Virus record (IMG/VR): IMGVR_UViG_3300029258_002338
Location: 6,175-70,174 of that record
Direction: 5' to 3' (one strand)
Length of the DNA: 64,000 bases
Origin: a virus
Under the pieces are notes generated by a model that was not told the origin of the DNA, ran no database searches, and saw only the letters and a program-made list of their open reading frames with translations. Positions within the stretch are counted from its first letter, which is position 1. Each line of letters begins with the position of its first letter. The position numbers and the translations under genes were made by a program. Positions 7,477-63,613 of the stretch are shown here, in pieces.

Positions 7477-7561
7477 TGTTGTTTCCTTTCTCTGTCACTT
7501 CGATCTCTCTTGAGGCCCGAGCTTCACGGCCCAGTGCCTCGCCCTTGTTTCGGACGCCGCC

Positions 7562-13363: not shown

Positions 13364-13712
13364 CCTTCGCTTCCTTTCTCTGGAGGACTCGGCTCCACGT
13401 CTCGTCGACCGTTGACTCGTCTTCGGCGGCCAGTCCCCACCGAGCCTGGGCTACCGCCGCGATGACCGAAGACGAAAATGCGAGTTGGATCACTTCGAGG
13501 GGGCCGAAGCCCCCAACGAGGCTGATGACGGCGCCTCCCCACCAAGCGTTGCACGCCGGGCAGAAGGCGAGCGCGTCGAGACCACACCACCGCAGCAGCT
13601 TGCGCGCCGGCATCCTCACGAGGAAGCCGATCTTGCTCCCGGTGATGACGTAGGCCACCCCGAGGGCCACGATGCCGACGCTCAGGATGTCGAGGATGAA
13701 GACGATCTGCAT
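13323..13712 (-). CDS. DUF1360-like membrane protein
   Basis: TM helices with an FCPACNAWW (CPxCxxxW) motif. Confidence 0.6.
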   Translation of the reverse strand: MQIVFILDILSVGIVALGVAYVITGSKIGFLVRMPARKLLRWCGLDALAFCPACNAWWGGAVISLVGGFGPLEVIQLAFSSSVIAAVAQARWGLAAEDESTVDETWSRVLQRKEAKDGSEERSPRTGRS

Positions 13713-14514: not shown

Positions 14515-15082
14515 CTCGCTTCCTTTCTACGTAGAGCCCACACCCGAGGGTGGAGTCGTCCACCAGCGCGCGATGCTTGGTGCACAAGCCGACGCGATCC
14601 GGGTCGGGAGACGGCAAGCCGCGAGCGTCGGCCTCCAGCTCGCCCACGTCCTTCCACATCTGGCAGACGCCATTCTCGAAGACGTGGGTCTGCTTCAGGT
14701 ACTCCTCGCGGCCCCGCCGCTTGTCGTTGTAGAAGCAGTCCGCACACGAGACGTCGTGGACGGGTTCCCAGGGGAGGGGAGCGGCGCCCACGACGGGCCG
14801 GATGGCCATCAGCCACCCGCCACCCACGTCGGTCCAAGCGTTCGGCTCCTCCAGGTAGCTGCCTCCGTGCAGCAAGTGGCCGTTGGCGTAGACGTCATGG
14901 ACGACGCCTCGGATGCCCCCTTGGTCCTCGAAGGTCTCGTGCTTCACCTCGACGGTGATGCCCAAGTCGCTGAAATCGGGGGGGTTCTGCTCAGTGCCTT
15001 CACGCTCGACGGGCTCGTCGGAGAAGTCCTTCTTGGCCAACAGGGCATAAGTGTAGCGTGGCGCGTTGACTTTGGTGGACAA
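14399..15082 (-). CDS. Cys4 metal-binding protein (paralog B)
   Basis: Probable TTG start 15082 after GAAGGAGG; CADC...VGLC...LGC pattern resembles the downstream gene. Confidence 0.55.
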   Translation of the reverse strand: MSTKVNAPRYTYALLAKKDFSDEPVEREGTEQNPPDFSDLGITVEVKHETFEDQGGIRGVVHDVYANGHLLHGGSYLEEPNAWTDVGGGWLMAIRPVVGAAPLPWEPVHDVSCADCFYNDKRRGREEYLKQTHVFENGVCQMWKDVGELEADARGLPSPDPDRVGLCTKHRALVDDSTLGCGLYVERKRDDEEGVRRGRSEGEAREDDGGGAPPAGGPVEVPHHRPK

Positions 15083-28647: not shown

Positions 28648-31185
28648 GTGTACCCTAAAATGATACCTTGCAAAGAAGGCGCATCGTGCCCCAGCTGTCC
28701 GCTCTACGAGGTGGGCATCCCGGTGGCTGACCGTCCCGCAGCCTCGGGCGTGAAGCTGGCCCTGGTGGGCGAGATGCCCGGCAAGGACGAGGTCGTCGAG
28801 AGCCTGTGCTTCGTCGGCCAAACCGGCCAGATGGTCGAGGCCGCCATCCGCCAGCTCGGGTCCCCGCAGCCCTACATGACCAACGCGGTGCGCTGCGGGC
28901 TCCCCCGCGGAGCCAAGCCCTCTCCGTCTCAGATGCAGGCCGCCGCGGACATCTGCGTGGGCGACGTGGTCGCCAACCTGCGCGAGGGAGGCTTCTCGGT
29001 CGTCATGGCCCTGGGCGGCTTCCCCTGGGAGCAGCTCTCGGGCTTCAAGGGCATCGAGAAGTACCGTGGCTGCGTGATGGACGACCCGCTGGGCGAGCCC
29101 TGGAAGCTGACGTGCAGCATCCACCCCGCGGCGATCCTGCGCCAGGAGATGTACTACCCCTGGGTCGAGCTGCTCGTCGCCGACCTCGGCAAGGCCTTCA
29201 AGCTGGCGTCCGGCGAGCTGGACGTCTGGAAGCCCACGGTGCTCGACGGGTGCGACTACGACGCCGTCCAACGCTTCCTGCGGGCCCTCCGGGGGCCGGT
29301 CGCCTGCGACGTGGAGACGGACGGCCTGGACGCCCTCTCGTGCAACCTCAAGACCGTCGGCCTCGCGAACCAGGGCGTCGCGGTCTCGATCCCGGTCGGC
29401 ACCTACTACGACGACCTGTGGAAGACCGGGGAGTGGAACCGCGTCGCCGCCTTGCTCCGCCAGATGTGCGACGACCCCAACATCCCGATGGTCTTCCACA
29501 ACAAGGTCTACGACGTGCCGGTCATGGAGCGGTACTTCGGCCCGATCCGCGGAGAGCGCCACGACACCCTGCTCGAGCACCACGCCTGCTTCCCCAAGCT
29601 CCCCCACACCCTCCAGCAGGTCACCACGCAGTTCCTGGCGGCCGAGCCCTGGAAGGTCCTCTTCGACGAGTCGATGGGCAAGAAGAAGTGGACCGAGAAG
29701 GAGACCGGCGACGAGCTGGCCCAGCTGCTCTGGTACAACGCCTCGGACACCGGGGCCACCGAGTACCTCCACCACCGTCTGAAGCCCGAGATCGCCTCCC
29801 ACGGCGTGCGAGAGGTCGTGGACGGCGACCGCAAGCTCGTCGACATCGCCATCGACTGGCACCAGGTCGGCATCGCCGTCGACCGCGAGCGGGCCGCCCA
29901 GCTGGAGGAAGAGTACCGCTTGCAGATCGACGAGATGTGGGACGCCCTCCAGTCCACGGTCGCCGAGGAGACCAAGGACCCGGATCGCCTGGGTCTCAAG
30001 GGCTTCATGGAGACCGACCACAAGCGGCTCCTCAAGGGCCACGGCTTCAACCCCCGCAGCCCGGACCAGCTCGCCAACTTCCTGTTCACGATCCTCGGGC
30101 TGCGCCCGCGCAAGCTCACCGCCACGGGCAAGCGGTCCACCGCCAAGGACGCCCTCTTCGAGCTGCGCGACGAGCACCCCTTCATCCGCGACCTGCTCGA
30201 GTATCGGGAGATCGCCAAGCTCTGGTCCACCTACCTCAAGAACCTCGAGTCTCAGCTCGGCGAGGACGGACGCCTCCACGCGGTCTACAAGCTGGCCGCC
30301 ACGCCCTCGGGCCGGTTCGGGACCTCTCCGAACGTCCAGAACTGGCCCTACTCGATGCGCGAGATGCTGGTGGCTCCTCCCGGGCGCAAGCTCATCGGGG
30401 CCGACTACGCGGCGCTGGAGCTGCGCCTCTCGGCCCTGCTCGCCGGCCAGGAGGACCTCATCGAGGCCTTCAACGCCGACGTCGACATCCACGCTCGCCA
30501 CGCGGGGTGGTTCTTCGGCGAGACCTGGCAGAAGCTCGAGGACGAGCTGGCGCGCACCGACCTGACCGACGAGGAGCGCAAGCGCCTGCTCGCCGCCCGC
30601 AAGGCGCTGCGTGGCCGCGGCAAGAACGTCACCTTCGGCAAGATCTACCGGGCCGGAGCCAAGACCCTCTTCGAGCAGATCCGCGAGAAGCTGCCCGGGG
30701 AGGACCAGGACCGGCTGATGCGCGAGGTGACGTTCATGTCGGCCACCCTGGACGCCAAGTATCCGCAGATCGTGGCCGCGGCGGATCACTACTGGGAGAG
30801 CGCCTGCCGCGACTTCTGCCTGCGGACCTTCCTGTCCGGCCGGCTCCGCAAGTACCCGATGGCCAAGCGGTTCCCTCCGCCCCCGACCGAGACGGCCAAC
30901 CACCCGATCCAGGGAGGCGCGGCGGACATCATCAACATGGCCACGCTCCGGTGGGTCTGGGAGCTGGAGGACGAGGGCCTCTACCACGACGGCGTCTGGC
31001 CCATCCTCCAGATCCACGACGCGCTCTACGCCGAGGTGGACGAGGACATCGCGCAGCAGGAGGCCGAGCGGCTCGAGCGGTGTATGTTCACCGAGCTGGA
31101 GCACGTCTCCCCGATCACGGGCCGCACCAACCGCCTGCGTTTCCCCGCGGAAGCCTCCGTGGGCGACCGGATCAGCGAGGTGTGA
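28648..31185 (+). CDS. family A DNA polymerase fused to an N-terminal family-4 uracil-DNA glycosylase and a 3'-5' exonuclease
   Basis: UDG: CPSCPL, VGEMPG, FVG, TNAVRC, HPAAIL. Exo: DVET, FHN, YD. Pol: SGR, DYAALELR, KNVTFGKIY, NHPIQG, QIHD. Confidence 0.92.
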   Translation: MYPKMIPCKEGASCPSCPLYEVGIPVADRPAASGVKLALVGEMPGKDEVVESLCFVGQTGQMVEAAIRQLGSPQPYMTNAVRCGLPRGAKPSPSQMQAAADICVGDVVANLREGGFSVVMALGGFPWEQLSGFKGIEKYRGCVMDDPLGEPWKLTCSIHPAAILRQEMYYPWVELLVADLGKAFKLASGELDVWKPTVLDGCDYDAVQRFLRALRGPVACDVETDGLDALSCNLKTVGLANQGVAVSIPVGTYYDDLWKTGEWNRVAALLRQMCDDPNIPMVFHNKVYDVPVMERYFGPIRGERHDTLLEHHACFPKLPHTLQQVTTQFLAAEPWKVLFDESMGKKKWTEKETGDELAQLLWYNASDTGATEYLHHRLKPEIASHGVREVVDGDRKLVDIAIDWHQVGIAVDRERAAQLEEEYRLQIDEMWDALQSTVAEETKDPDRLGLKGFMETDHKRLLKGHGFNPRSPDQLANFLFTILGLRPRKLTATGKRSTAKDALFELRDEHPFIRDLLEYREIAKLWSTYLKNLESQLGEDGRLHAVYKLAATPSGRFGTSPNVQNWPYSMREMLVAPPGRKLIGADYAALELRLSALLAGQEDLIEAFNADVDIHARHAGWFFGETWQKLEDELARTDLTDEERKRLLAARKALRGRGKNVTFGKIYRAGAKTLFEQIREKLPGEDQDRLMREVTFMSATLDAKYPQIVAAADHYWESACRDFCLRTFLSGRLRKYPMAKRFPPPPTETANHPIQGGAADIINMATLRWVWELEDEGLYHDGVWPILQIHDALYAEVDEDIAQQEAERLERCMFTELEHVSPITGRTNRLRFPAEASVGDRISEV

Positions 31186-32919: not shown

Positions 32920-33149
32920 TGGCGTGTCACTACCGCATTGACGACTCGAAGGGCCGCACCGGCGACGACTACTACGGCGGCAAGACCAAGAAGGCCGCCC
33001 AGCGCCGCAAGAAGGCGCTCAAGGTCACCGGGCGCATCTACCGTCACTGCGCTCGCAAGGGTGCCAAGGCGCCGCGGACCATGCCCCCTGCTCTACAGTG
33101 GGCCTACATCGGCATCTTCGGCGCCGGGATCTGGCTGGCGCTGCGATGA
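32919..33149 (+). CDS. small basic protein with C-terminal TM
   Basis: TAATG overlap; Lys/Arg-rich; WAYIGIFGAGIWLAL. Confidence 0.6.
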   Translation: MACHYRIDDSKGRTGDDYYGGKTKKAAQRRKKALKVTGRIYRHCARKGAKAPRTMPPALQWAYIGIFGAGIWLALR

Positions 33150-33403
33150 CCCGTCGCATCAACGAGACCGTGGCCGTCAAGGTCACGCCAGAGTTCAAGG
33201 AGGCGCTCGAAGCCTGGGGCTACGAGCACGGCCTCACAGCGGGCCAGTCGCTCCGCGCGCTGGCCCAACTCGCCCTGGAGCAACGCCTCGGCGGGCAACC
33301 CTTCCGTGCGGCCCTGGAGTCCGCGCGGGCCAACCTCGTGCAGGCGATCTCGGAGCGGTCCAAGGCCGCCTTCGAGTCAGTCCTGCGCGACCTGGAGATC
33401 TGA
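33146..33403 (+). CDS. ribbon-helix-helix-like DNA-binding protein
   Basis: ETVAVKVTPEFKEALEAWG...GLTAGQSLR pattern. Confidence 0.55.
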   Translation: MTRRINETVAVKVTPEFKEALEAWGYEHGLTAGQSLRALAQLALEQRLGGQPFRAALESARANLVQAISERSKAAFESVLRDLEI

Positions 33404-33419
33404 GAGGAGATGTGGGGAG

Positions 33420-33812
33420 ATGTCAGGATTCAAAGAGCAGATCATACAGTGGACGGAGACCGCGGCCGACGTGTCGGAGAAGTGCTCCACCATCGTCGCC
33501 CGTAGCGGCGCCAGCGTCATCAACACGCTGTCCCCGCTGATGGTCCAGTGGGAGCGGTCCAAGCTCCGCCGCGAGGACGTCTTCCGGGACGGCATCGCCG
33601 AGTGGATCACCAAGCTCCAGGAGGCCGGCCTGGGCGCCCCCGAGGCCAAGCACCTGGCCTCGCTCGAGATCCAGCACCGCCACCGGGCGCGCGACCAGGA
33701 GGGGACCATCGAGAGGTTGGTGGCCGACCTGCTCACGCAGATCATCGGCATCGGGCTGGCGAGCCTGCCGGCCAACCTGCCGGGGATCGGCGGGGAAGGG
33801 GAAGACCAATGA
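33420..33812 (+). CDS. hypothetical protein
   Basis: Helical ORF coupled to the hydrolase gene. Confidence 0.55.
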   Translation: MSGFKEQIIQWTETAADVSEKCSTIVARSGASVINTLSPLMVQWERSKLRREDVFRDGIAEWITKLQEAGLGAPEAKHLASLEIQHRHRARDQEGTIERLVADLLTQIIGIGLASLPANLPGIGGEGEDQ

Positions 33813-34471
33813 AGCGCGGGAGGTTCGTGAGGGAGCACGACGGCACCGAGTACGTGCCGAGCAACGAGGACGTCGAGTGGCTCGCCAAGTCTCTCTGGGG
33901 TGAGGGCGGCAGCGACATCACGCGCACCGAGGCCGCGGCCGTCGCCTGGACCATGATGCGCCGCTTCTTGCTCTGGCCCGGCGACCGCTGGGACTCCTTC
34001 ACGCAGCTCGTCCGCAGCTTCTCCCAGCCGGTCAACCCGGCCTGGCTCGATCCCTCCGGCCCGAAGTGCCGGAAGCACCCCGACTACTGCCAGGACTCCC
34101 ACATCCGCCGGCGCCGCAAGATCCAGGGCGCCTCGTGGGGGGACGTCCCCGAGAAGGCGCGGCTCCACGCCGTCTCCTTCCTCGCCGGCGTGCTGCCCGA
34201 CCAGCTGGGCGCCGAGTACGTCGACTTCGCCTCCACGCCGCGAGCCCGCCGCATCGGGCGCGACGTGGGCGGCAACTTCTTCCTCACCAAGTCCCAGACC
34301 GACATGGGCTGGCTGCCGGGCGGCGTGCGCGTCGATCCCCAGTACGCTGGTCCCGAACTCCCCGACGTGGGGTGGGAGCCTTCCACTCCGGGAACGCTCC
34401 CGACCACCCTCGCCATCCTGGCGTGGGCTGGTCTGACGGCGTGGGCCGTCAAGAAAGTCTTCTTCGAATAA
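33809..34471 (+). CDS. SleB/Hydrolase_2-like cell-wall hydrolase with C-terminal TM
   Basis: DVEWLAKSLWGEG...AAVAWTMMRR...FSQ. Confidence 0.65.
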   Translation: MKRGRFVREHDGTEYVPSNEDVEWLAKSLWGEGGSDITRTEAAAVAWTMMRRFLLWPGDRWDSFTQLVRSFSQPVNPAWLDPSGPKCRKHPDYCQDSHIRRRRKIQGASWGDVPEKARLHAVSFLAGVLPDQLGAEYVDFASTPRARRIGRDVGGNFFLTKSQTDMGWLPGGVRVDPQYAGPELPDVGWEPSTPGTLPTTLAILAWAGLTAWAVKKVFFE

Positions 34472-34482
34472 GGAGGTTAGTC

Positions 34483-35076
34483 ATGCGTTGGATCACCAGC
34501 CCTTCACGGGTTGGCGAGTGGGCGTACCTGTGTTTGCTCGCCTTCGTCAGTCAGAGCGTCCTGGTGGCGGCCGAGCCCGCCGAGCCCGTCTCGATCGGGG
34601 AGCCCCGCGAAGGGGTCTCCGAGGTGGCCGAGGTCGAGACCTACATCAAGACCTTCGTCGCCAACGGTCGCAAGGAGCAACGAGCGGCCCGAGACCGCCG
34701 CTGGAAGGCCATCCCCGAGCTGGCGGCCCTCATCGTCGAGGTGGCCCGAGAGTGGAGCCTAGACCCCCTCCTGGTGGCCGTGGTCGTCAAGTACGAGTCG
34801 AGCTTCTACCAGGCCAGCGTGGGGGCCGTGGGCGAGCTGGGCCTGATGCAGGTCTGGGGCAAGGCCGCCCGCGACGACGACGGCAAGCCCTACGACCTGG
34901 ACACCTCGCGCGGGCAGCTCATGGCCGGCTGTCACCACTTCGTGCGCTGCCTCGAGCAGTGCGGCGGCGACGTCCTCTCTGCTCTGAAGGCGTACCAGTC
35001 CGGCCAGTGCGGCGCCTCTCGCACTGGGGCGGGGCTACGGTACAGGGAATATCTAGCAGTCCGAAGCAAACGGTAG
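34483..35076 (+). CDS. lytic transglycosylase (SLT) with N-terminal signal/anchor
   Basis: LDPLLVAVVVKYESSF, GELGLMQV, ALKAYQSG. Confidence 0.85.
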   Translation: MRWITSPSRVGEWAYLCLLAFVSQSVLVAAEPAEPVSIGEPREGVSEVAEVETYIKTFVANGRKEQRAARDRRWKAIPELAALIVEVAREWSLDPLLVAVVVKYESSFYQASVGAVGELGLMQVWGKAARDDDGKPYDLDTSRGQLMAGCHHFVRCLEQCGGDVLSALKAYQSGQCGASRTGAGLRYREYLAVRSKR

Positions 35077-35460
35077 GGTATTAGCTTACCTGTCAGGAAT
35101 TATCCCACATATTTACCATGTGCCGCTATGGCAACCTAGCAAATACCATGCCACATATCCATAGGATACCCCTATAGTATAAGGTATATATAGCAATAAG
35201 TATGCCAAGTCTATATGGGTATACTATGCAAAAAGTATATAGATTCCCTATGGATTCGGACGGAAATGTCGTGGTTTTTCCTATCCTGTCGGGTATCCAT
35301 AAACCTACGATTTCCCAATTCCCCAGTGATTTCAATAGGTTATAGCATATAGGGAATCTTGGCCTATTCCCTGCATATTCCCTATATGTTCGCGGTTCTT
35401 TCACAATCGATTCCCTGTGCCAGCTGGCGATTCCTAGCGTATCCCTGGCTATGAGCACGC
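35077..35460. other. AT-rich non-coding segment with recurring ATAT/TATAG/CATAT motifs
   Basis: Sharp GC drop; no credible ORF; sits between lysis-type genes and a probable early region. Confidence 0.6.
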
Positions 35461-35482
35461 ACTGCGTTCTTTGACTGCGAAA

Positions 35483-35600
35483 ACCGCTTGTAGGTTTGCC
35501 GACGAAATCCGACAGGGTTTGCGGGTTTATGCGCTTGTTTCGTTTCCTTTCTCAGCGCGGGTTGCTCGCACGTCGCCCGGTTCGATTCCGGGAAGCGGTG
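35483..35600 (+). ncRNA. tRNA-like structured RNA with an anti-SD loop (not a canonical tRNA)
   Basis: Acceptor-like stem ACCGCTT/AAGCGGT stacked on T-arm CCCGG-TTCGATT-CCGGG; further stems CGACG/CGTCG, AAATCC/GGGTTT, GCGGGT/GCTCGC, TGCGCT/AGCGCG; loop TGTTTCGTTTCCTTTCTC. Confidence 0.75.
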
Positions 35601-35633
35601 TCGTGTTCTTTGAAACCCGAAAGGAGAAAAGGA

Positions 35634-36005
35634 ATGGAACAGCAGATCTTCTCGAATGACTTCTTCCTGCCGGAGATGCCCGGAATCGACGGCGACCGAT
35701 TCGAGTTGTGTCCGTGTACAATGGTCCACGGTCACCTCTTGGACGTCGAGGCCGGAGTCGAGTTTCTGGTCTTCCGGTCGGGAACCGTCGAGGGGAAGCA
35801 CGCCGCTTTGGTGCTGGCGCTTCCCTTGGCCGAGGGGCTTTCCTTGCCGGATCCCAAGCTGATGATCATCGATCTCGACATCGCCCGCGACAAGGGATCC
35901 GTATTTCAGGATCTCACCTTCACTTCGCAGTCGTTGGCTGACTGGGCCAGCGAGAACGACGAGTGGGATTTCGTCGCTCCCTGCGACTGCGCCGACTGCC
36001 TCTAG
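35634..36005 (+). CDS. hypothetical acidic protein
   Basis: ATG 35634 after AAAGGAG; C-terminal CDCADC. Confidence 0.6.
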   Translation: MEQQIFSNDFFLPEMPGIDGDRFELCPCTMVHGHLLDVEAGVEFLVFRSGTVEGKHAALVLALPLAEGLSLPDPKLMIIDLDIARDKGSVFQDLTFTSQSLADWASENDEWDFVAPCDCADCL

Positions 36006-36180
36006 CCTACCTTTCTTGATTCCCCGATGCGAGGCGGCGAGTCCTGCTCGCCGTCTCGGATCTCGGAACCAAACTCCGAGAGTTTCTCCGGGTCTTTGAC
36101 AATCTGGATTCGGATGCACTTGCAACGCGCGCGGCGCGTTGTCGCGCGCATTCAAAACCCGAAAGGGAAGGGAGTCCAAA

Positions 36181-36411
36181 ATGATCAAGGTCACTTTCAT
36201 CAACAACATGGGCGGTGGTTACGGCATGACGAAGGACGTGCCGGACGGCACCACGATCGACAGCTTCCTGCGCGAGACCCTCGGCGAGGGTTTCGATCCG
36301 CACAGCTACAAGATCTCGGTGAACAGGAGTCCGGTCGCCGCCAGCTACACGCTGGTCGACGGCGACCGGATCTCCGCCACCCCGACCAAGATCGAGGGGG
36401 CCGGCCGCTAG
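36181..36411 (+). CDS. ubiquitin-like (ThiS/MoaD beta-grasp) protein
   Basis: 76 aa; VPDGTTIDSFL...ISVN...LVDGDRISATP...EGAGR. Confidence 0.85.
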   Translation: MIKVTFINNMGGGYGMTKDVPDGTTIDSFLRETLGEGFDPHSYKISVNRSPVAASYTLVDGDRISATPTKIEGAGR

Positions 36412-36423
36412 GCTGGAACCCTC

Positions 36424-37551
36424 ATGACCGATCCCGAACTCAATCGGGAAGCTCTGCGGCTGGCCGTGCGGTTCCTTCGGGAGCCGCCGGCCCGGCCCCG
36501 GGCTTCTCAGCTCCAACTTGCAAGCTGCATCCGTGACGCGGTCTCGCGACTCGAGACTGCGTACAAGCACATTCGTCGGCACTCACGGGTCTCGGACCCG
36601 TACAAGCAGGACCGCTACAGACGGTCCATCCAGAGGATCGTCTGCTCGAACGCCCACTGCTTTCGGCAGTGGGATGACGAGCAGACCATCGAGGACGAGC
36701 TTCGTCAGCTCCACCCGCTCCAGCCGAATCTCCGGGACGTCTACGATGACATCCTGGCGATTCAGGACGAGTGGGGGGCAGCTCTGGATCTGAGGCAGAA
36801 GACGATCGTGGTCGTGACCGACCCGATCGTCCTAGAAGGGATCAACCTGGGTCGGATGAGCATCAAGCTCTACATCCGCCCCGGAGATCTCAGCTTTCGG
36901 ATCCATCCCTTGGAGCCCAACTACGGGCGCAACGACTATTTCCACCCGCACGTCAGTGCGGGAGGGGATATGTGCGAGGGAGACGCTGAGACCAAGATCA
37001 ACAACGCCATCATCAACGGTTCGATCTACGACGTCGTTCAGATCCTGATGTCCACGCTCACCACCTACAATTCGTCTTCGCCATACCTGGCGCTGGAAGA
37101 CTGGGATGGTCACTCGGAGACTTGCCCCAACTGTGGGGATGAGATCTCCGAGGACGACGCCTACAGCTGTGATAGCTGCACTGAGACCCACTGTGGGATC
37201 TGCGTGCACTACTGCGAGGAGTGCGGAGGGTACTATTGCGAGGGATGCAGAACCGTCTACTCGTGTGAGCAGTGCCATTCGTCCATCTGTTCCCGCTGTT
37301 CCTACACCTGTTCCGTCTGTGGCGAGCAGTTCTGCGACGTGTGCCTCAATTCCTGCGAGGATTGCGGTTCGCTCTTCTGCGAGGAGTGCAACCGCGATCC
37401 CGATGGGCGCTGCTGCCCGGAGTGCTACGAGCGCGAGGAGGAAGAAGATGACGAAGAAGAAGAAGAAGCCGAAGTCGGGGACAAAGTCAAAGTCGGAGAC
37501 AACGACTACGACGGCGACCACGATCACACCGGCTACGCCCGAGCCGTCTAA
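36424..37551 (+). CDS. prokaryotic E2-like protein with Cys-rich repeats and acidic tail
   Basis: YFHPHVSAGGDMCEG (HPxV...C E2 active-site pattern), then a long CxxC array. Confidence 0.75.
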   Translation: MTDPELNREALRLAVRFLREPPARPRASQLQLASCIRDAVSRLETAYKHIRRHSRVSDPYKQDRYRRSIQRIVCSNAHCFRQWDDEQTIEDELRQLHPLQPNLRDVYDDILAIQDEWGAALDLRQKTIVVVTDPIVLEGINLGRMSIKLYIRPGDLSFRIHPLEPNYGRNDYFHPHVSAGGDMCEGDAETKINNAIINGSIYDVVQILMSTLTTYNSSSPYLALEDWDGHSETCPNCGDEISEDDAYSCDSCTETHCGICVHYCEECGGYYCEGCRTVYSCEQCHSSICSRCSYTCSVCGEQFCDVCLNSCEDCGSLFCEECNRDPDGRCCPECYEREEEEDDEEEEEAEVGDKVKVGDNDYDGDHDHTGYARAV

Positions 37552-38371
37552 GGCGGCTCTCACACCGATTCCGAAACCGCCTCGCGCAACCCTCTGTCTC
37601 ACGCAGGAGGCGGCGGCCAAGGCTGCTTTCCTCCGGGACAACTACCAGCACGAAATCGGCGCCTTCGGCGTCGCGCTCAACGCCGACGATCCGCTGCTGA
37701 TCCACGACTTCGTAGTGGTGAAGCAGGAAGTCAGCTGTGCATCGGTGGAGTTCGACGATCAAGCAGTGAGCGACCTTTTCAACGACTGCTTCGACGAGGG
37801 GATCCATCCGTACCAGTGCGGACGGGTCTGGATGCACACGCATCCGTCCGGGGTGACGTCTCCGTCCGGGACCGACGAGCAGACCTTCGAGAAGGTCTTC
37901 GGTTCCTGCGACTGGGCCGTCATGTTGATCTTCCCCAAGGGGGCGGCCAAGCCCTACTGCTGTCTCCAGTTCAACGGCGTCGTCTCCCACCGGGTCGAAA
38001 TCCCGGTGGAGATTCTGCCCTACGAGGCAGACACCGCCGAGTGGGAAGCCGAGGTGGCGGCCAACGTCACCGAGGAAGTCTTCATCTACAGCGGCACGGC
38101 CAAGGCGGCATCCGACGCCGGAGTGCGGGATTCCGATCTCGCAATCTACGATCTGTTCGAGCCCTACGACTCCGAGCCTCGCGAGTCCGACCCGTTCTAT
38201 TTCGACGCGCAAGGGCGCCGGGTCTGGTGTGGTGGAAACGAGGACGAACTCACCGAGTTCGCCCACGACGAAGGCTACATCATCCACGAGCACGCCGACG
38301 GGACCCAGGAGCTTCTCGACGAGGATGAGATCTGCTGGTACCCCGACGACGAGGGGACGGGCTATGCATAG
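37448..38371 (+). CDS. JAB/MPN metallo-isopeptidase
   Basis: EIG...WMHTHPSGVTSPSGTD (E...HxHx7Sx2D-type); start ATG 37448 after GAGGAGG. Confidence 0.85.
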   Translation: MTKKKKKPKSGTKSKSETTTTTATTITPATPEPSKAALTPIPKPPRATLCLTQEAAAKAAFLRDNYQHEIGAFGVALNADDPLLIHDFVVVKQEVSCASVEFDDQAVSDLFNDCFDEGIHPYQCGRVWMHTHPSGVTSPSGTDEQTFEKVFGSCDWAVMLIFPKGAAKPYCCLQFNGVVSHRVEIPVEILPYEADTAEWEAEVAANVTEEVFIYSGTAKAASDAGVRDSDLAIYDLFEPYDSEPRESDPFYFDAQGRRVWCGGNEDELTEFAHDEGYIIHEHADGTQELLDEDEICWYPDDEGTGYA

Positions 38372-38999
38372 ACGCGACGCCGACATCATCAATCAGGATC
38401 GTCTCTCGCAGCTCGACTTCATGGTAGTCGGTGTCGGAGCGGTAGGCCGGAACGTCGCTCTGATGCTGGCCTACATCGGCGCCGCCAGGATCACTCTCGT
38501 GGACTTCGACACCGTCGAGCCCGAGAACCTGGCGACTCAAGGGTTCGTCCCGGCACAGCTGGGCGAGCCCAAGGTCAACGCCGTCTGCGAGGACATCAAG
38601 CGGATCGATCCCGAGATCGACGTCACGGTTCATTTCTCACGCTGGAAGCGCAGCATGGCCGCCGAGGTGGTCTTCTGCTGCGTGGACTGCATCAAGGCCA
38701 GGAAGTTCATCTTCAACGCGGTGAAAAACGACTGCCGTCTGTTCCTGGACGGCCGCATGACCGCTGAGACCTTCCAGGCCCACGCCGTCTACGACGACGA
38801 CACCACCGTCGACTATCGTGAGACCTTCTTCGCCCCGGGCGAGGCGCAGGGAGAAGCCTGCACCGCGAAGGCCACGATATACAACTCCAACATCGCCGCC
38901 GGCTTCCTCACGGCGGCCTTCACCAAGTGGCTTCGGGGCATCGACCCGGAGCCGTGCGTCAACGTCAACGTGCTCACCGCCGAGGTGGTGGTGGGCTGA
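38364..38999 (+). CDS. ThiF/E1-like activating enzyme
   Basis: VVGVGAVG, DFDTVEPENL, KV, CCVD...R, DGR, and candidate catalytic Cys in EACT. Confidence 0.9.
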   Translation: MHRRDADIINQDRLSQLDFMVVGVGAVGRNVALMLAYIGAARITLVDFDTVEPENLATQGFVPAQLGEPKVNAVCEDIKRIDPEIDVTVHFSRWKRSMAAEVVFCCVDCIKARKFIFNAVKNDCRLFLDGRMTAETFQAHAVYDDDTTVDYRETFFAPGEAQGEACTAKATIYNSNIAAGFLTAAFTKWLRGIDPEPCVNVNVLTAEVVVG

Positions 39000-39052
39000 T
39001 CCGCATCCGAATCCAGATCTGAACGAGCCCCGGCGATTCGAGACCGGAAAGA

Positions 39053-39087
39053 GGCGGGGGAGTGCAACCGCTCCCCCGTCCATTTCT
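39053..39087 (+). terminator. hairpin after the E1 gene, possible terminator
   Basis: GGCGGGGGAG/CTCCCCCGTC stem followed by CATTTCT. Confidence 0.45.
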
Positions 39088-39298
39088 GCTCTCGAACCTA
39101 GCTCTCTGAAAAAGGATGATCGAGAATTGGATGGTGTATGGTGTATGGTAGGTGGTTTCTCCGTCCTTTTTCGGGGCTCTCCAGGAAGCGCAGGATCGCG
39201 TGTGCGCGCGATTGCGCGGCCAATCTCCCTTCCGGTCTCAAAGAGGATTCGCAAGCGTTCTTGCGCTTCCTCGAGATCCCTGATCTCGATTTGTCCAC

Positions 39299-39327
39299 TT
39301 GCGCCCTTGGCCTATAGACACTACATT
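39299..39327 (+). promoter_or_regulatory. sigma70-type promoter for the DUF932 gene
   Basis: TTGCGC-17-TACATT. Confidence 0.55.
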
Positions 39328-39394
39328 GGGGTAGTGCAGTTGGCCTGGGGATGCGAATCCTCTTTGAAAACGAGTTGCAAGAAGGGAGAAACCA

Positions 39395-40585
39395 ATGCAG
39401 ATCTACAAGGCTTTCGATCAGTGGTGCAAGCGCCCGATCGACGAGCGTTTCTGGACGCTCGACGAGATGGTGCGCGCGACTCACTCCTGCTACGTCAACG
39501 CGGCCCAGGGCCAGGCGAGCTACGGCGATCTCTCCGTCATGGCCGAGGGGGACTCGATGTTCCTCGCGGGCAAGTCGGGCGTCAAGGCTCGCCTCTCGAA
39601 CTGGGCGTTCGGCCAGCTCTGCTCGCGGGCCGGCGCGCCGGCGTCGTACCTCCGTCAGCTCCCGGCCCCGATGGCCCAGGACTGCCTGAACCACGGGCTC
39701 CGGGAGCAGGTGGAAGACGGCAACGCGCGGATCCTGTTCCACGGATCCCAGCCGTCTTCGACCGCTGCGGATCTGGCTCGCGATCCCAACCTGCTCGCCC
39801 GAGCTTTCACGTCCATGACCTACAAGCGGGTCTGGAACTGGGAGATCGGCAAGCGCCTGATCCAGCTCCGCGACGACGGGGGCTGGGTCACCCCTCCGGC
39901 CCGTCCCGCCCACCCCAACGACCCCCGGACCCGGAAGGCCACCGAGGCCGACTGTGGTCCGCACACGCTCGTCCAGCCCGGCGATCTGATCGCGCCGTCC
40001 GGCATCTACGCCAGCGACCACGATACGTTCGTTTTCATGGTCAACCCGGAGCGGACGGTCAGCGACGGCAAGAACGAGCTGTCCCGCGGCTTCTTCTGCT
40101 GGAACTCCGAGGTCGGCGCTGCCAGCTTCGGGGTCATGGCGTTCCTCTACAACCACACCTGCTCGAACCACATCGTGTGGGGAGCGCAGGGGGTCCACGA
40201 GATCCGCGTCCGCCACGTCGGCAACGCGGACGAGCGGGCCTTCAACGAGCTGTCCGTCGAGCTGCGCAAGTACGCCGACGAGTCCACTTCGGACATGGAC
40301 GCCAAGATCGCCAGCGCGAAGAAGTACGTCATCCCCGGCAACGACAAGTCGTCCGTCGTGGACGCGATCTTCGGGATCGCGCGCCAGAAGCGCGTGCAGA
40401 TCCCGCAGAAGGCGTTCCGGGCGGCCTACGACATCGCCGACCAGCGGGAGGACGACTACGGTCACCCCAACACGCTCTGGGCCCTGACCCAGGGTCTCAC
40501 CCAGCTCTCCCAGCAGTCCGAGTTCGCCGACAAGCGGGTCGACCTCGACCGGCAGGCGGGCAAGCTGCTGGAGATCGCGTTCTAG
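39395..40585 (+). CDS. DUF932-family protein
   Basis: AFGQLC...P..Y; RGFFCWNSEVG...YNHTCSNHIV...RHVG; NTLW...GLT. Confidence 0.75.
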   Translation: MQIYKAFDQWCKRPIDERFWTLDEMVRATHSCYVNAAQGQASYGDLSVMAEGDSMFLAGKSGVKARLSNWAFGQLCSRAGAPASYLRQLPAPMAQDCLNHGLREQVEDGNARILFHGSQPSSTAADLARDPNLLARAFTSMTYKRVWNWEIGKRLIQLRDDGGWVTPPARPAHPNDPRTRKATEADCGPHTLVQPGDLIAPSGIYASDHDTFVFMVNPERTVSDGKNELSRGFFCWNSEVGAASFGVMAFLYNHTCSNHIVWGAQGVHEIRVRHVGNADERAFNELSVELRKYADESTSDMDAKIASAKKYVIPGNDKSSVVDAIFGIARQKRVQIPQKAFRAAYDIADQREDDYGHPNTLWALTQGLTQLSQQSEFADKRVDLDRQAGKLLEIAF

Positions 40586-40610
40586 GGATCTGACAGATCG
40601 GAGGGGTGAG

Positions 40611-42307
40611 ATGACCGAGATCAAGCGGAACGACGAAGGCATCCCCGTCTGCCCCGACTGCGGGGCGGCGTGGTGGGGGGAACACTACAGGGCGGAGGTC
40701 CACCACAACATCGACATCAGGCGCTCCTGCGACAAGGTGACGCTGGAGTGGGGGCTCTACGAGGCTCGCCTGGACGGCAGCGAGGTGGGTCAAACAATCT
40801 ACTGTCGCGGGTGCGGCGAGGACGCGCCGGAGGAGGTGGCGGAGGCCGTCTACGCCATGATCGACTGAAGGCCGAGAGGCCTCGGCTCCTGGGGAGATCA
40901 CGCTCAAACCAGGGGCCCCGCAGGGCAATCGCGCCCTGCCGATTGCGAAGGGAGGTTTCGAGATGCAACTCTTTGACAACCGAGGAGAGGAGGAGAGATC
41001 ATGAGCGTGGTGGTAGGCCTGTTCGACTACGAGCGGGACGGGAAGGTGCTGCTGAAGATGGTCGAGGCCGAGCTGGGAGAAGACGGCAAGCGGATTTCCT
41101 GGCGGAAGTTGCAGCCCAAGTTCAACAAGGCGTTCGGTCTCGACCTGACGCGGGGCCAGTGGTCTCGCGTCGTGCACCAGTGTCGCGTCGATCACGGTGT
41201 TCCGCTACGCGAGTCGGGCTACGGGTTCATCGCGACGCGAGGCCGGGAGCTGTACGAGCTGACCAAGGACGTCGAGGACCTCGCCGTCACCCTCCGCGGA
41301 GGGTTGGCCGAGGAGCTGGACGAGTTCTTCGAGGCTCCGCGGTCCTGGGCCTCGTGGAGGACGATGATCATCCGCTGCCGTCAACGGTACGGGAACGGAT
41401 CCGACGCAGCTCCGCCGGAGCCCGAGCCCCCGCCCGCCAGGCCCAAGAAGCCCGAGAAGTCCAAGGGCAAGCCCAAGGGCAAGCGGTTCCACCTGAAGCG
41501 CAGCCCGGAGCGCGTGGCGCGCGGCATGGCCGCCAGCGTCGATGCGACGAGCGAGGCGATCGAGAACGCCAAGGCGTCGCTGCCCAAGGGGGACGAGGGC
41601 GTGCCCGGCTACGCCGGCCTGTCTCCAGCCCCCGCCCCAGCCCCCACTCCCGCTCCGCCCCGGCGCCTGGCCAAGAACTGCTTCGAGGTCACCTTGGAGC
41701 AAGAGGACGTGGATCGTCTGCACGCCTTCATGAAGGGCGTGCGGCGCAACCTGGAGCGCCTCGGTCTCGAGGCGGACTTCACCAGCGAGAAGGCCCTGCG
41801 CGTGCTCGTCAAGCGTGGGCTGGACGAGGAGGAGCAGTGATGATGTCCAACGGTATGCCGACCATGAAGGAACTCTTCGACGGGATCGTCATCGACCCCG
41901 AGGAGATCGCCAACCGGCACCTGCGCTACGCCCCCGAGCTGAAGGGTCACGTCCTGCACGTCCAGGCCCTGGAGTCGGTCCAGCCGATCGCGGACATGGG
42001 CGACGAGGACGAGGACGACGACCTGCCCGACGTGGACTGGGAGGCCATGTTCTCGGAGGAAGACGGCTGGGAGCCGGCCGAGAAGCCCGAGCCCTGCGAC
42101 GAGGTGTGCTCTCAGTGCGAACGCTACGAGTGCACCGGGCAGCAGGAGCCCGAGCCCACCGAGGGGATCGACATCCGCGTGGTGGTCAAGGTCGCCCCCA
42201 AGGGGCAGCGAGCCTCGCGGAGCGCGCCCGTCTGGAAGACGATCACGTTCCGATCTCCCCCTCTCGCTCGGTACATCAACGACGTCTGCGACTTCCACGA
42301 TATGTGA
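40611..42307 (+). CDS. three hypothetical genes (40611-40868 Zn-ribbon, 41001-41840, 41840-42307)
   Basis: RBS and coupled junctions; CPDC...CRGC in the first. Confidence 0.6.
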
Positions 42308-47300: not shown

Positions 47301-50024
47301 CCCGTGCGGCTTGCCGTTCTGGCGCCTCCGCACGAGGGGGCCGCCGTCTCGGGAGAGCCGCTCGATCAGCGGGACGTAGGACCCCCACCCCATGAAGGCG
47401 TCGGGGTAGCGCGGCTGGAAGTAGTTGCGGAAGAACCCGGCGTGCGTGAACTCGACCCCCGGGGGCACCTCGGCCAGCGTGTCGAGGATCATGTGCCACA
47501 CCTCGTCAGCCGGCAGGCGGTTGATCGTACCTTGTGGCCCTCTCATCTCACCGCTTCCTCTCTCCCTGGTACGGTGCCGTCTCGACGCAGATCCTCAAGG
47601 GCTCGTGAGCAGGCCCGTACAGGTAGCCTGGGGGAAGCTCCACGTCGAAGACCTCGCAGTACCACCGCTTCGCCCCATCGCGGCGCGCTTCGTCGGTCTT
47701 CCGCAGCTGCGGGCAACCCGTACAGTGATCGTGGTTCGGTATCTCGAAGTCGTAGTCGATCCCATCGACCTTCGCCTTGAATCGTCTCATCAGTTTTCCC
47801 CCTCCTTCTCCACGGTCAGCCTGGCGTGCTCCCACGCTTGGCCGCCTCTGGTGTGTTGTTGGGATCGCTGTAGGCGCAGTCAGCGCACCACGTAGCCCGC
47901 TTGGCCCCAGTGAATCCGCGCCCGCATTTGAGGCATCTACAGAGGTAGCCGCCAGGTGCCCAGCCTTTTCGCTGCGGGCGCTCGTCTCCTGGATCGTTCA
48001 TCGCCTGTTGGACGGTCAGCGCTGTTTCCTTTTTTCCCATCATCGGTCGTCCTCTTTCTTCCGCCGCGCATCCCACGTCTCCTGGTAGGGGTGCTGCAAC
48101 TCGAACTCCCCGGGGCCGAGGATGCGGCGATCCCGCGGAGACAAGACCCCGTACTCAGGAATTCGGCCGTCCTCCGCGTTGATCGGGTGCTCGCCAATGC
48201 TGCGGAACCAGTCGAGCGCGAGATCGAAGCAGTCCACCTTCTCAGTCGAGAAGAAGATGCGGCCAACGATCTGCGTCTCGTCGGCCGGGAACTTCTCGTA
48301 GCCCCAGCCAGGGCACGGGACGAAGTAGCGGTCGCCCATCCCCCTGATCTTGGACTCCAGCCGCTCCCTCTGCTTCTCGGGGTCCAAGGGGCGTGGGCCG
48401 ATCCAGCGGCGCGTCACCTTGTGCGTGACGATGCGACCCTCGCAGAGCACGGCGATGGCTTCGGCGTAGTGCTCGTGCTCGGGCAGCTGCTCCGTGGTGA
48501 AGGGACCCTCGAAGTGCCTGTTGTCGGTCATCGGTCGTCCTCCCCTTTCTCCGCCCTCAGTGGGCGTTGATAACCTTCACTTATCAAGGGCCTCCTCCTC
48601 CTCCGAGGTCCACAGCTCCTTGATGACGCGGCGGATGGACGCGAACCGGGCGCCCACCAGCACCTCGAAGGTCTCGAGATCGTGGTAGCGGATCTTCCTG
48701 GTCGCCAGCTCGAGGATCTTCTCCAGCGCCTTCTCGCGCCGGTTGACCAGACGCTCGAGCCTCTTGCAGGTCTCACACTCCATCACTTCCCTCCGTGGAG
48801 CCAGACGTTGCCGTAGCCGGGGAGGATGACGGTGCCGTGGCGGCTCATCTCCTCGGCGATGCCCTCCTACTGAGCTTGACGACGTTCGGTGAAGATGTAG
48901 GCTACAGTGAAGCGTTTCATCGTTCCTCCAAGATGTTGCACATGGTCTTGCTGTAGGTGTGCGGGAGGCACACCAGGAGGCTGCGCCACCCCGCGTTCCA
49001 GGCGCGGTACAGGCGCCGGTATCTGCGGTGCGATTCCGCGTCGATGTCGCAGAGCCGACGGACCGTGCCGTAGCCCTGTCCCATGAGGCGAGCCACCTCC
49101 AGGTCGATCATCCGCGCGGTCTCGTAGTCGTGGCGGGCGTCCCACCAGCGCGCCGTGAGCCGCCGCGTGGCGCCGTCGATAGAGGCGACGAGTAGCTTGG
49201 CGTCCTCGATCTCCTGGAGCCGCGCGCACGCGTCCCAGACAATCAGCTCTACCTCGGCGAATGATCGTAGAGCCTGCACCGCCAGCGCGCGCACCTCGGC
49301 GTCGAACGCCTCGAGATCTTCGATGGGATCGATCACTTGTCGTTCTCCTCCGCTGCTCATCTGTCGCTCTCCTTCCGCGGCACGAAGATCAGTCTCCTGC
49401 GGCGTGACCCAGTCCATGTCCGAGCTGCTCGTCATCACCTCGACGTTCTGGTTCATCCGTTCCCGTCCTCGTCGTCGTAGGGGTTGTCGGGCACGTCCTC
49501 GCGGATCGCCTCGCGCTCGAGCTTGTTGACCTCGCGGATCAGCTCGTCGCGCGCCTCCTTCAGCGCCACGTTCTCCTCTTCGAGGTCGCGCTTCTCGAGC
49601 GTGAGGGCGTCGATCTTCTGGTTGAGGGTCGTGATCGCCCTCAAGCCCTCCTCGCGGTGCTTGATGGCCTCGCGCAGCTCGCGCTGCAACGCGGCGACCT
49701 CTCCCTGAAGCTGGTGGATCCGCTGGTCGCGCGCCACGTCCATCGCCTTGCCCGCCAGGCCACCCAAGAATCCCATCCATCCCGCTCCGCTCATCCGTTC
49801 CTCCCGGCCTTCTCGGCCTCGCGGCACCCCTCGCACCGCTGGTAGTGGTACCCCTCCCGTCGCATGATGAGGCCGAGCCGCGAGTCGTAGCTCCGACACC
49901 ACATCATGAGGGGGTCGCCCGTCTTGACGTACCGCTGGGGGCAGTCGAGCCCGCACCGCGTCTCCCCCTCGACCCAGACCTGGCAGTCGAACCCGACCCG
50001 GTCCTTGAGGATCATCTTCTTCAT
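44310..50024 (-). CDS. array of small accessory genes (44310-44450, 44443-44703, 44705-45730, 45727-46215, 46217-46393, 46396-46614, 46619-46942, 46942-47190, 47250-47546, 47548-47790, 47816-48043, 48040-48531, 48577-48786, 48917-49456, 49453-49794, 49791-50024)
   Basis: Co-oriented, mostly abutting ORFs with RBS; several coiled-coil (RVAELE repeats) or CxxC proteins. Confidence 0.55.
49391..49456 (-). pseudogene. N-terminal remnant of a phage Dam-like adenine methyltransferase
   Basis: MNQNVEVMTSSSDMDWVTPQ resembles the typical N-terminus (V-x-x-SS-x-x-x-x-W-x-TP); no catalytic motifs follow. Confidence 0.4.
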
Positions 50025-50899: not shown

Positions 50900-51117
50900 T
50901 CCGGCCACCACCCGCAGTGCTCGGCGAGCAGCTCGTTGAGCCTGAACACCTTGCCCGCCGTCCATCCGATGCCGTAGCCGTCGCGGTCCACGAACCCACG
51001 GGCGCGGATCATCGCGCTGACTTCACCCACGCGGAAGGCGGTGTCGGCGATCTCGGCGTAGGGCTCGGGGAGCACCGTCTTCAGCAAACCCATCTCTCCC
51101 TTGGGGTCCTGTCCCAT
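50896..51117 (-). CDS. hypothetical protein
   Basis: Follows the GAGGAGG junction repeat. Confidence 0.5.
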   Translation of the reverse strand: MGQDPKGEMGLLKTVLPEPYAEIADTAFRVGEVSAMIRARGFVDRDGYGIGWTAGKVFRLNELLAEHCGWWPE

Positions 51118-58225: not shown

Positions 58226-58393
58226 CTACTTGCCGCGCAGCAGGCACCGCTTCTTGCCCTTGCGGGGACCGCTCTTGGCCGCCTTGGACCACTTGAGGCA
58301 CTTGCCCTTCTTCTTCTTGGACTTGGGCTTGGCCCACTTGAGGCACCGCTTCTTGCCAGCCGCCCGCTTCAGACACCGTCGCTTCGTCGCCAT
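58226..58393 (-). CDS. protamine-like Lys/Arg/Cys repeat protein (55 aa, not in ORF track)
   Basis: MATKRRCLKRAAGKKRCLKWAKPKSKKKKGKCLKWSKAAKSGPRKGKKRCLLRGK; strong RBS AGAAAGGAAAC. Confidence 0.8.
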   Translation of the reverse strand: MATKRRCLKRAAGKKRCLKWAKPKSKKKKGKCLKWSKAAKSGPRKGKKRCLLRGK

Positions 58394-58450
58394 GATTCGT
58401 TTCCTTTCTTTCTTCTCCGAGGGCTCCCTCGCCCTCTTGGTTCCCGCGCG

Positions 58451-63222: not shown

Positions 63223-63588
63223 CTAGTAGCAGCCGTAGCAGGCGCCGAAGGGACGGTTGACGGCCGCGCGGGTGACGTCCATCAGGCCCATCGGCTGGCC
63301 GTAGTCCACGGCGCCCATGCTGCGCTGCACGTCCAGGAGGCCCATGCTGCGCTGGACGTCGAGCAGGCCGAGACCCGCGGCGGCGCCGTTGCCGGGCTTG
63401 GCCACGAAGTAGACCGCGATGGCGGTCCCGAGGGCCACGCCGGTGCTCGCCAGGGTGGCCAGGGCGCCCGACTTGAAGTTCGAGGAGCCCTGATCCTTCT
63501 GCGAGCCGAAGACGGTGTAGCCGAGGCTGCCGCTCAGGAAGCTGCCGACCGTGCCGATTCCGAATGCCAAGAGTCGCTGAGTGTCCAT
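63223..63588 (-). CDS. 2-TM virion protein with GLLDVQRSM tandem repeat
   Basis: ATG 63588 after GAGAAAGGAAAC; 27-bp tandem duplication; ends CYGCY. Confidence 0.7.
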   Translation of the reverse strand: MDTQRLLAFGIGTVGSFLSGSLGYTVFGSQKDQGSSNFKSGALATLASTGVALGTAIAVYFVAKPGNGAAAGLGLLDVQRSMGLLDVQRSMGAVDYGQPMGLMDVTRAAVNRPFGACYGCY

Positions 63589-63613
63589 GTTTCCGTTTCC
63601 TTTCTCCTGACCC

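Follow-up and report, generated by a model that had tools for sequence, protein, structure and literature searches.

A tRNA-like phage element whose loop complements ribosome-binding sites: a candidate for translational control in cis and/or trans

Introduction

Can an RNA that has the acceptor and T-arm of a tRNA and no anticodon serve a virus as a regulator of translation? The question is raised by a 118-nucleotide (nt) element on the plus strand, at positions 35483-35600 of a 64,000-base stretch (hereafter the window) of IMG/VR virus record IMGVR_UViG_3300029258_002338. The parent record comprises 70,174 bases and represents one complete virus genome with terminal repeats. An earlier inspection of the letters, which we call the sequence-only reading, had folded the element by hand into a tRNA mimic, noted that its apical loop is antisense to several ribosome-binding sites (RBSs), and proposed a multi-target translational silencer or timer of late genes. 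We have followed up this proposal computationally. The reading that we consider best, tentatively and with slightly less than even confidence, is that of a functional tRNA-like anti-RBS element that may control translation in cis and/or in trans.

Results

An acceptor and a T-arm without an anticodon

When the isolated 118 nt were folded with RNAfold, the same tRNA-like structure was obtained as the minimum free energy (MFE) fold and as the centroid, at -44.5 kcal/mol. It agrees with the hand-drawn fold in the acceptor, the T-arm, the linker with its GG and the 18-nt loop (Table 1). The 3' strand of the acceptor, AAGCGGT, adjoins the 3' end of the T-arm, and GGTTCGATTCC occurs as a single copy in the genome. 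By the criteria of a canonical tRNA, the element possesses an acceptor with a discriminator base joined to a T-arm of the TTCRANY type; the D-arm stem and an anticodon arm with a 7-nt loop are absent from the predicted fold.

A module scanner was set to require a T-stem of 5 base pairs (bp), a loop of the form TTCRANN and, next to them, a strand of 7 nt that has a perfect complement upstream. It found this combination of acceptor and T-arm nowhere else on either strand of the 70,174-bp genome. When first-order Markov genomes were scanned in the same way, 2 out of 300 gave one such module. Positions 35483-35600 are a genuine tRNA-like module without an anticodon.

Standard searches pass this module by. 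ARAGORN at default settings reports 0 tRNA or transfer-messenger RNA (tmRNA) genes in the window, and Rfam 15 yields nothing at gathering thresholds. Relaxing Rfam to E<=10 over 35300-35750 brings up sub-threshold miRNA and RAGATH-36 matches only, which we read as noise. A known family with another function, which would have spoken against the sequence-only reading, was thus not matched in either search.

The loop complements a shared motif at the start of dispersed genes

We scanned the genome for ungapped complementarity to the apical loop. Excluding the loop itself, four sites reach at least 10 contiguous Watson-Crick bp, and all four lie directly before an ATG. Shuffled loops rarely behave this way: at least four sites anywhere were reached by 27/1000, and at least four sites beside an ATG by 2/1000. 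The five complementary sites named by the sequence-only reading lie where it had placed them, with uninterrupted or bulged Watson-Crick runs at four, while the site at 14516-28 needs G-U pairs (Table 1).

Six copies of the 10-mer GAAAGGAA[AG]C exist in the genome, each on the minus strand. An ATG follows five of them at a distance of 13-16 nt; the remaining one is the element loop, behind which no ATG, GTG or TTG was found, as had been noted. In all five RBSs with the AGAAAGGA core, this core is extended by A[AG]C, which makes the shared motif longer than a Shine-Dalgarno (SD) sequence; the loop is its exact complement. The Watson-Crick matches of the loop reach 2-10 nt past the 8-nt SD core. 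Judged by complementarity, the loop is a predicted extended anti-RBS sequence, with RBS matches above composition-matched controls.

The loop side also complements the downstream start site

The SLT gene directly upstream of the element and the 123-amino-acid (aa) open reading frame (ORF) downstream of it both lie on the plus strand; a plus-strand RNA is therefore the expected transcript of the element. The ATG of the 123-aa gene follows the element by 33 nt, and its product has no relatives in Pfam, PHROG or Atlas. The sequence-only reading overlooked that the RBS and AUG of this gene recur, inverted, in the loop side of the element. The complementarity amounts to 23 bp in three blocks, non-SD sequence included: 35536-46 with 35631-41, which contains the AUG, 35548-53 with 35624-29, and 35558-63 with 35614-19. 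The resulting duplex has a predicted energy of -30.2 kcal/mol, compared with a mean of -16.6 for dinucleotide shuffles of the target segment. An energy as low was found in 2/1000 target shuffles, in 0/1000 when the loop segment was shuffled, and in 3/936 windows from the genome.

Once the transcript is extended to include the downstream start, the MFE structure switches to a long hairpin that buries the RBS; a fold with the tRNA-like structure enforced lies about 11 kcal/mol higher. The RBS-burying fold would thus compete in cis with the tRNA-like fold. A role in cis has at least as much support as a role in trans.

Since all six motif copies point the same way, the loop could instead be a sixth, dead minus-strand RBS, stranded in decayed tRNA-derived sequence that has no RNA function. 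At the spacing of the ATG in the other five copies there is an AAG, which opens a minus-strand stretch of 141 codons free of stops, a length attained by 17/2000 shuffles of the intergenic region. The GC content at the three codon positions of this frame, 0.40/0.47/0.46, carries no coding signal, whereas third-position GC (GC3) in the genes of this genome is about 0.8-0.98; the frame has no tblastn relative among phages, and both neighbouring genes are on the other strand. A dead RBS would furthermore leave unexplained both the acceptor/T-arm module, with its frequency of 2/300, and the 23-bp complementarity in cis. We therefore consider this explanation improbable.

tRNA-like genes recur in the clade of this phage

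Viral contigs searched for close kin with the 24-nt T-arm and acceptor string, the 123-aa protein, the SLT and ThiF proteins and a single PolA returned none. Among deposited phages, the region 34500-37500 had no blastn match, and the best tblastn match of PolA showed only about 25% identity. The PolA search did, however, define a clade of about 26 proteins with 38-53% identity, several of them on 50-80-kb contigs, all with the same fusion of uracil-DNA glycosylase (UDG), exonuclease and PolA, which is a signature of this phage clade. With an alignment of 24 PolA sequences, we obtained 6 viral loci of full length and about 30 from metagenomes; their replication modules are syntenic.

When 417 kb of clade DNA were scanned for structure under relaxed criteria, 8 acceptor and T-arm modules appeared, against 0.05 in Markov controls; default ARAGORN called one tRNA in the relative loci. 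Four of the modules (in L032, L034, L084 and L085) make up one family with a constant order of parts. The acceptor of 7 bp is followed by a linker of 9 nt, with GG at element positions 11-12, and by a central helix of 7 bp; next come an apical hairpin, whose pyrimidine loop of 17 nt is conserved, the T-arm and the discriminator. Each is followed at 49-50 nt by the ATG of PolA on the same strand. The central helix is 100% paired over the four sequences, with double changes in 3/7 pairs. Altogether the family shows 4 double-change pairs compared with 1.3 in shuffles (5/500), and its covariation score was reached by 1/500 shuffles; because the four sequences are close (91% column identity), this support is thin but consistent. 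A covariance model of the family, R2, recovers just these four, and the pattern of family linker, gap and T-arm found no further member. The best Rfam match of the family, tRNA-Sec, scores 19.6 bits where the gathering score is 47, and this assignment was rejected.

Two further loci, L089 (~5959-6001) and L101 (8940-8986), hold minimal forms that consist of an acceptor, a GG linker and a T-arm with exact GGTTCGATTCC, and have no central arm; as we read them, their stems differ by paired changes. The GG at element positions 11-12 is common to the element, the four-member family and L089. Oversized tRNA-like genes of 79-118 nt occur in L080, L083, L087 and L103, three of them with a D-arm, and ARAGORN accepts these only in intron mode or with relaxed thresholds. 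The oversized and minimal genes, which default ARAGORN misses, have the same strand as PolA and precede the PolA match by 0.7-3.7 kb.

The element resembles the four-member family in the order of its parts, in a linker of 9-10 nt, in a pyrimidine loop of 17-18 nt and in a same-strand ATG 33-50 nt downstream. Unlike the family, it has an extra side hairpin and helix and a different loop, it follows the SLT gene rather than preceding PolA, and sequence homology is not detectable. At least by architecture, the element belongs to the set of tRNA-like genes of the clade.

The oversized genes also bear on the idea that the element is a true, if aberrant, tRNA gene with a short insertion or intron in the anticodon region. 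In intron mode (-i), ARAGORN predicts a tRNA-Ala(tgc) whose ends are exactly 35483 and 35600 and whose intron has 26 nt, and it calls intron-bearing tRNAs in L080, L083 and L087 as well; the clade does have oversized tRNA-like genes with proper D-arms. We do not accept the tRNA-Ala(tgc) assignment because the D and anticodon stems drawn for it contain mismatches. Default ARAGORN and all Rfam tRNA-clan models fail on the element, and its acceptor has C3-G70 instead of G3-U70, the expected alanine identity pair. Moreover, bacteria are not known to possess a splicing system for tRNA introns of 14-28 nt. Taken together, a split tRNA gene is decidedly improbable.

In viral contigs, the pattern of loop core, gap and T-arm gave 24 matches and no homolog of the element; the matches are ends of permuted tmRNAs, a single real tRNA and tRNA-like modules that are unrelated. 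Two unrelated viral contigs, L012 (~1000-1090) and L023, carry a tRNA-like module of about 85 nt with a 7/7 acceptor, a T-arm and a hairpin loop with the same TTCCTTTCT core as the loop of the element; their acceptor pair 3:70 is read as G-U. Since these contigs were chosen by the pattern, only their acceptor pairing is independent evidence. In a family of seven contigs (L003, L006, L014, L019, L020, L022, L025) the motif lies in a stem.

Pairing or scaffold

A number of results weigh against regulation by pairing. As to expression, no RNA run is among the sequencing runs listed with the phage, and a promoter and terminator scan of 34900-35800 returned 0 sites. Fold energy is ordinary both for the 118 nt (z -1.33; 21/200 shuffles as stable) and for the extended transcript (z -1.06); the significance of the element lies in its tRNA-specific parts, not in its energy. 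When G-U pairs are allowed and at least 12 bp required, the loop has 47 sites compared with a shuffle mean of 39.6, which is no specificity. In addition, the signals in cis and in trans cannot count as separate evidence, since the RBS downstream is itself a diverged copy, on the plus strand, of the motif at the minus-strand RBSs.

Relatives add further points on the same side. R1, a covariance model of the element that recovers its own source at 151.7 bits, finds no convincing match in five whole relative records (one of them, G002, 94% complete), and on 40 relative loci it gives only weak matches (L036, 17.7 bits; L101, 13.7; L085, 12.3 with E 1.9). Conversely, R2 has no match to our window at E<=10. 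In G002 (65.6 kb, whole), 17 non-self sites of 8 nt or more were counted for the family loop, where shuffles give 17.0, and 0 sites of 10 nt or more. In four relatives the element fold is itself the MFE structure, with loop-RBS pairing marginal in 1/4, and pairing of the loop alone with the downstream RBS beats shuffles in 1/5 elements (25/500 for L034; 138/500 for ours). Multi-RBS antisense and anti-SD pairing in cis are therefore not class-wide. The RBS pairing is specific to our copy, which lowers, without removing, the case for pairing-based regulation.

These observations lend some weight to a functional module that is not antisense and serves as processing punctuation, as a stable tRNA mimic, or as a scaffold that offers its pyrimidine-rich loop to a protein or the ribosome; the modules of the relatives may be of this sort. 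Complementarity to RBSs would then be a by-product of an anti-SD-like loop meeting similar strong RBSs. Consistent with this, the family loop of the relatives is conserved, yet it matches no set of RBSs, nor the PolA RBS beyond chance in 3/4; the minimal forms in L089 and L101, which lack the central arm, suggest a constant function in the acceptor/T-arm core; and the loop of the element is unspecific as soon as G-U is allowed. What such a by-product does not account for is the extent of the Watson-Crick matches past the SD core, the placement at start codons equalled by so few shuffled loops, and the inclusion of non-SD sequence in the three-block complementarity in cis. We regard this alternative as possible, although on the unlikely side.

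Products of the genes behind the candidate trans sites

The sequence-only reading had described the targets as genes of a virion module, the major capsid gene among them. We could not verify these labels, having found no PHROG match, no Pfam structural family and only weak fold matches. The ATG behind the motif at 7490 opens just 29 codons, after which about 350 nt without GC3 signal are followed by a strongly coding frame. Homologs of the resumed frame have about 230-240 aa, mostly with 56-72% identity, and their first 21 residues align to the 29-codon ORF. The gene (6434-7476, minus strand) thus contains an intervening sequence of about 350 nt at 7064-7413. As we read the junctions, the exon ends in T at 7414 and the intervening sequence in G at 7064. 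The Rfam model Intron_gpI aligns end to end with 7110-7414; its 22.4 bits (E 0.0018) fall short of the gathering score. The homolog in G002 is uninterrupted and has an ordinary GGAG-type RBS. Positions 7064-7413 are probably a group I intron that splits a conserved clade protein of about 232 aa.

An AlphaFold model of the full-length homolog is rich in beta structure (pLDDT 63.5, pTM 0.60). Fold searches with the 232-aa protein gave weak matches of the beta-sandwich or jelly-roll type, the best in the PDB at E 0.018 and the best viral one at E 4.1e-5 with a TM score of 0.44; capsid entries of SH1 and HHIV-2 appeared at E ~0.1. These matches are too weak for a capsid call. The major capsid identity is plausible, though unproven, because the protein is among the more conserved ones of the clade (56-72% identity compared with about 40% for PolA).

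The remaining targets encode a low-complexity protein of 622 aa, a Cys-rich one of 162 aa, a very basic one of 55 aa and a Gly/Ala-rich one of 121 aa, none of which matched a family. The 55-aa product had been called protamine-like, and its Lys/Arg-rich repeats with spaced Cys bear out that description. In PHROGs, 0/10 proteins matched, a set that included four target products and exon 2 of the fifth. Among ten large minus-strand ORFs, Pfam matched two (DUF3987; helix-turn-helix-type domains), neither structural, and did not match the 622-aa protein, the sole target in that set. A PDB sequence search of target proteins gave 0, 0 and 1 insignificant match.

Genomic setting

The genome has about 65% GC. 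Minus-strand genes occupy 1-17 kb and 42-64 kb, and between them, at 17-41 kb, the genes are on the plus strand. With zero differences, the phage occurs in DNA metagenomes from sediment and seawater, from which it may originate: over 33000-38000, DNA contigs of runs X1, X2 and X4 have the same sequence as the window, and run X5 contributes short identical pieces only. A tyrosine integrase suggests that the phage is temperate; a serine recombinase was not found in it. No terminase, portal or HK97-type capsid family is among the Pfam matches of the window proteins. The virus may not be a typical tailed phage, because of this result, the 0/10 matches in PHROGs and the weak jelly-roll-like fold matches.

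The gap between the SLT gene and the next gene, 35077-35633, has 46% GC. Motifs ATTCCCTAT and ATAGGGAAT are dense in both orientations over 35039-35421, including 12-nt perfect inverted repeats; this region could hold regulator binding sites or an origin, and the stop-free minus-strand frame of 141 codons lies in it as well. In run X4 the otherwise identical assembly splits into two contigs that overlap by 30 nt at 35433-35462, about 20 nt upstream of the element, where the other runs read through. Downstream, an accessory block at 35634-41840 has lower GC and no counterpart detected in the fetched parts of the relatives' records; the element therefore lies at the edge of a lineage-specific block.

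An integrase in the genome raises the alternative that the element is an attP-type site, a copy of the 3' end of a host tRNA used by this enzyme (Pfam, 55.8 bits). The short upstream repeats in both orientations could be arm-type sites, and the X4 break might be read in the same sense. The integrase gene, however, lies about 14.5 kb away, and the phage has both acceptor strands instead of a 3' half alone. A 21-nt pattern of T-arm and acceptor matches no tRNA in 185,579 species genomes; its three matches all fall outside ARAGORN-called tRNAs, apparently in coding sequence. No attP was located, and we judge an attachment site to be very unlikely.

Table 1. Coordinates of the element, its candidate pairing sites, related modules and neighbouring features (window positions unless a locus is named)
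Feature	Position	Strand	Basis or remark
Acceptor-stem 5' strand ACCGCTT	35483..35489	plus	7/7 Watson-Crick with AAGCGGT 35593-99
Linker, 10 nt, GG at element positions 11-12, no D-stem	35490..35499	plus	unpaired in centroid fold
Central arm in place of D and anticodon arms	35500..35575	plus	RNAfold MFE and centroid
Central-arm parts	closing helix 5 bp 35500-04/35571-75; side hairpin 35505-20		
Central-arm helices, stacked, leading to loop	35521-26/35564-69; apical helix 35530-35/35554-59		
Apical loop, 18 nt, pyrimidine-rich, predicted anti-RBS	35536..35553	plus	RNAfold and complementarity scans
T-arm CCCGG-TTCGATT-CCGGG, 5-bp stem, TTCGATT loop	35576..35592	plus	sequence and scanner
Acceptor 3' strand and discriminator G (35600)	35593..35600	plus	CCA not encoded
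Candidate cis target: leader, two SD-like boxes, AUG 35634-36	35614..35641	plus	duplex with loop side
Downstream orphan ORF, 123 aa	35634..36005	plus	ATG after AAAGGAG...AAGGA; third-position GC rises here
Candidate trans site 1, 12 Watson-Crick bp	7481..7492	minus	RBS of conserved beta-sandwich gene, probably intron-split, ATG at 7476
Candidate trans site 2, 10 Watson-Crick bp, 16 with G-U	13366..13380	minus	RBS of 622-aa protein, ATG at 13363
Candidate trans site 3, contiguous 17 with G-U allowed	14516..14528	minus	RBS of 162-aa Cys-rich protein, ATG at 14514
Candidate trans site 4, 14 Watson-Crick bp	58396..58409	minus	RBS of 55-aa highly basic protein, ATG at 58393
Candidate trans site 5, 13 Watson-Crick bp and 5 past one-base bulge	63588..63606	minus	RBS of 121-aa Gly/Ala-rich protein, ATG at 63588
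Four-member family of modules in relatives	L032:9858-9950, L034:9859-9951, L084:1884-1974, L085:1740-1832		
Oversized tRNA-like genes in relatives, 79-118 nt	L080:9150-9246, L083:6186-6303, L087:4073-4179, L103:7918-7996		
Repeat-rich intergenic region	35077..35482		both orientations of ATTCCCTAT-type motifs
UDG-exonuclease-PolA fusion	28648-31185	plus	uracil-DNA glycosylase, 3'-5' exonuclease and family A DNA polymerase in one polypeptide
Weak JAB-domain protein	37106-38371		in accessory block 35634-41840
ThiF/E1-like protein	38229-38999		in accessory block 35634-41840
DUF932 protein	39395-40585		in accessory block 35634-41840
Tyrosine integrase	50021-50965	minus	Pfam Phage_integrase, 55.8 bits
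55-aa protein, Lys/Arg-rich repeats with regularly spaced Cys, protamine-like	58226-58393	minus	no family match

Discussion

Our analysis describes an acceptor/T-arm minihelix joined through a GG linker to a long central arm, of which the loop and its 3' flank would serve as the anti-RBS segment. We infer that the element is transcribed and processed and that it affects translation. In an unprocessed plus-strand transcript, the start site of the downstream gene would be buried as the anti-RBS segment pairs with its AUG, with both SD-like boxes and with the leader. The tRNA-like fold would be the competing conformer and could offer a handle to tRNA-processing enzymes, with cleavage by RNase P at 35482/35483 and 3' trimming near 35600. 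Such a cut would separate the anti-RBS segment from the mRNA downstream and set free a stable RNA of about 118 nt, whose exposed loop could then pair in trans with the 11-18-nt RBS motif shared by the five minus-strand genes. Processing by these enzymes is suggested by analogy with known RNase P substrates.

Several known RNAs share parts of this design. The tRNA-like domain of tmRNA has no D-stem, an analogue of the D-loop with a GG, and a long helix in the place of the anticodon arm. The element shares this layout, with its acceptor stacked on the T-arm; it differs from tmRNA in having C3-G70 and not G3-U70, in its length of 118 nt and in the absence of a tag reading frame and pseudoknots, and ARAGORN and the Rfam tmRNA models are silent on it. 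The YrlA RNAs are non-coding RNAs that imitate the acceptor, T-arm and D region of tRNA without decoding, and their ends lie in the Ro-binding stem, not in an acceptor. In contrast to YrlA, the element has no Rfam family at threshold.

Leaders that sequester RBSs, such as anti-SD hairpins, RNA thermometers and riboswitch platforms, likewise contain an upstream pyrimidine segment complementary to the next SD and AUG and allow two mutually exclusive folds. In the element, by contrast, a tRNA-shaped module presents the predicted anti-SD as its apical loop. There is no evident ligand or temperature logic, and the sequestering pairing is not conserved in relatives.

A functional parallel may be found in the c4 RNA of P1 and P7 and the CI RNA of P4 (Rfam C4), which are small structured phage RNAs with loops that pair at or near phage RBSs, as the loop of the element does in silico. 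C4 RNA is matured by RNase P, and the element may be as well. A review lists phage C4 antisense RNA, pre-tmRNA and mRNAs among the RNAs processed by RNase P. Unlike C4 and CI, the element has an explicit T-arm and a 7-bp acceptor and no Rfam C4 match, and its candidate targets are one gene in cis and five dispersed genes instead of an immunity operon.

The multi-target silencer or timer of late genes that had been proposed is supported in part: the tRNA-like module and the anti-RBS matches have held up, the late or virion identity of the targets remains putative, and a multi-target silencer is not a trait of the class. A fuller model, speculative and on balance doubtful in its entirety, would be a phage tRNA-scaffolded anti-SD RNA matured by RNase P, and the first of its kind. 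Its loop would out-pair the anti-SD tail of 16S rRNA by forming 11-18 bp with the extended RBS motif. Made from the early or replication strand, it would first gate the downstream gene in cis and then, once processed, restrain translation of a regulon on the opposite strand, probably of late or structural genes; the PolA-adjacent genes of the clade would be variants of it.

A search of the literature, at the level of titles and abstract openings, turned up no tRNA-shaped phage RNA described as having an anti-SD loop. If the preferred reading of translational control in cis and/or trans is true, the element joins tRNA mimicry, with its benefits of processing and stability, to control by anti-SD pairing, two features not found described together within that scope. 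It would also offer a compact and testable model of a phage that uses an extended RBS code of its own to switch a group of genes. Whatever the mechanism, a little-known clade of phages of about 50-80 kb, marked by the UDG-exonuclease-PolA fusion, repeatedly has tRNA-like genes that are anticodon-less or oversized. Standard tRNA finders miss these genes, which affects counts of the tRNA content of viruses.

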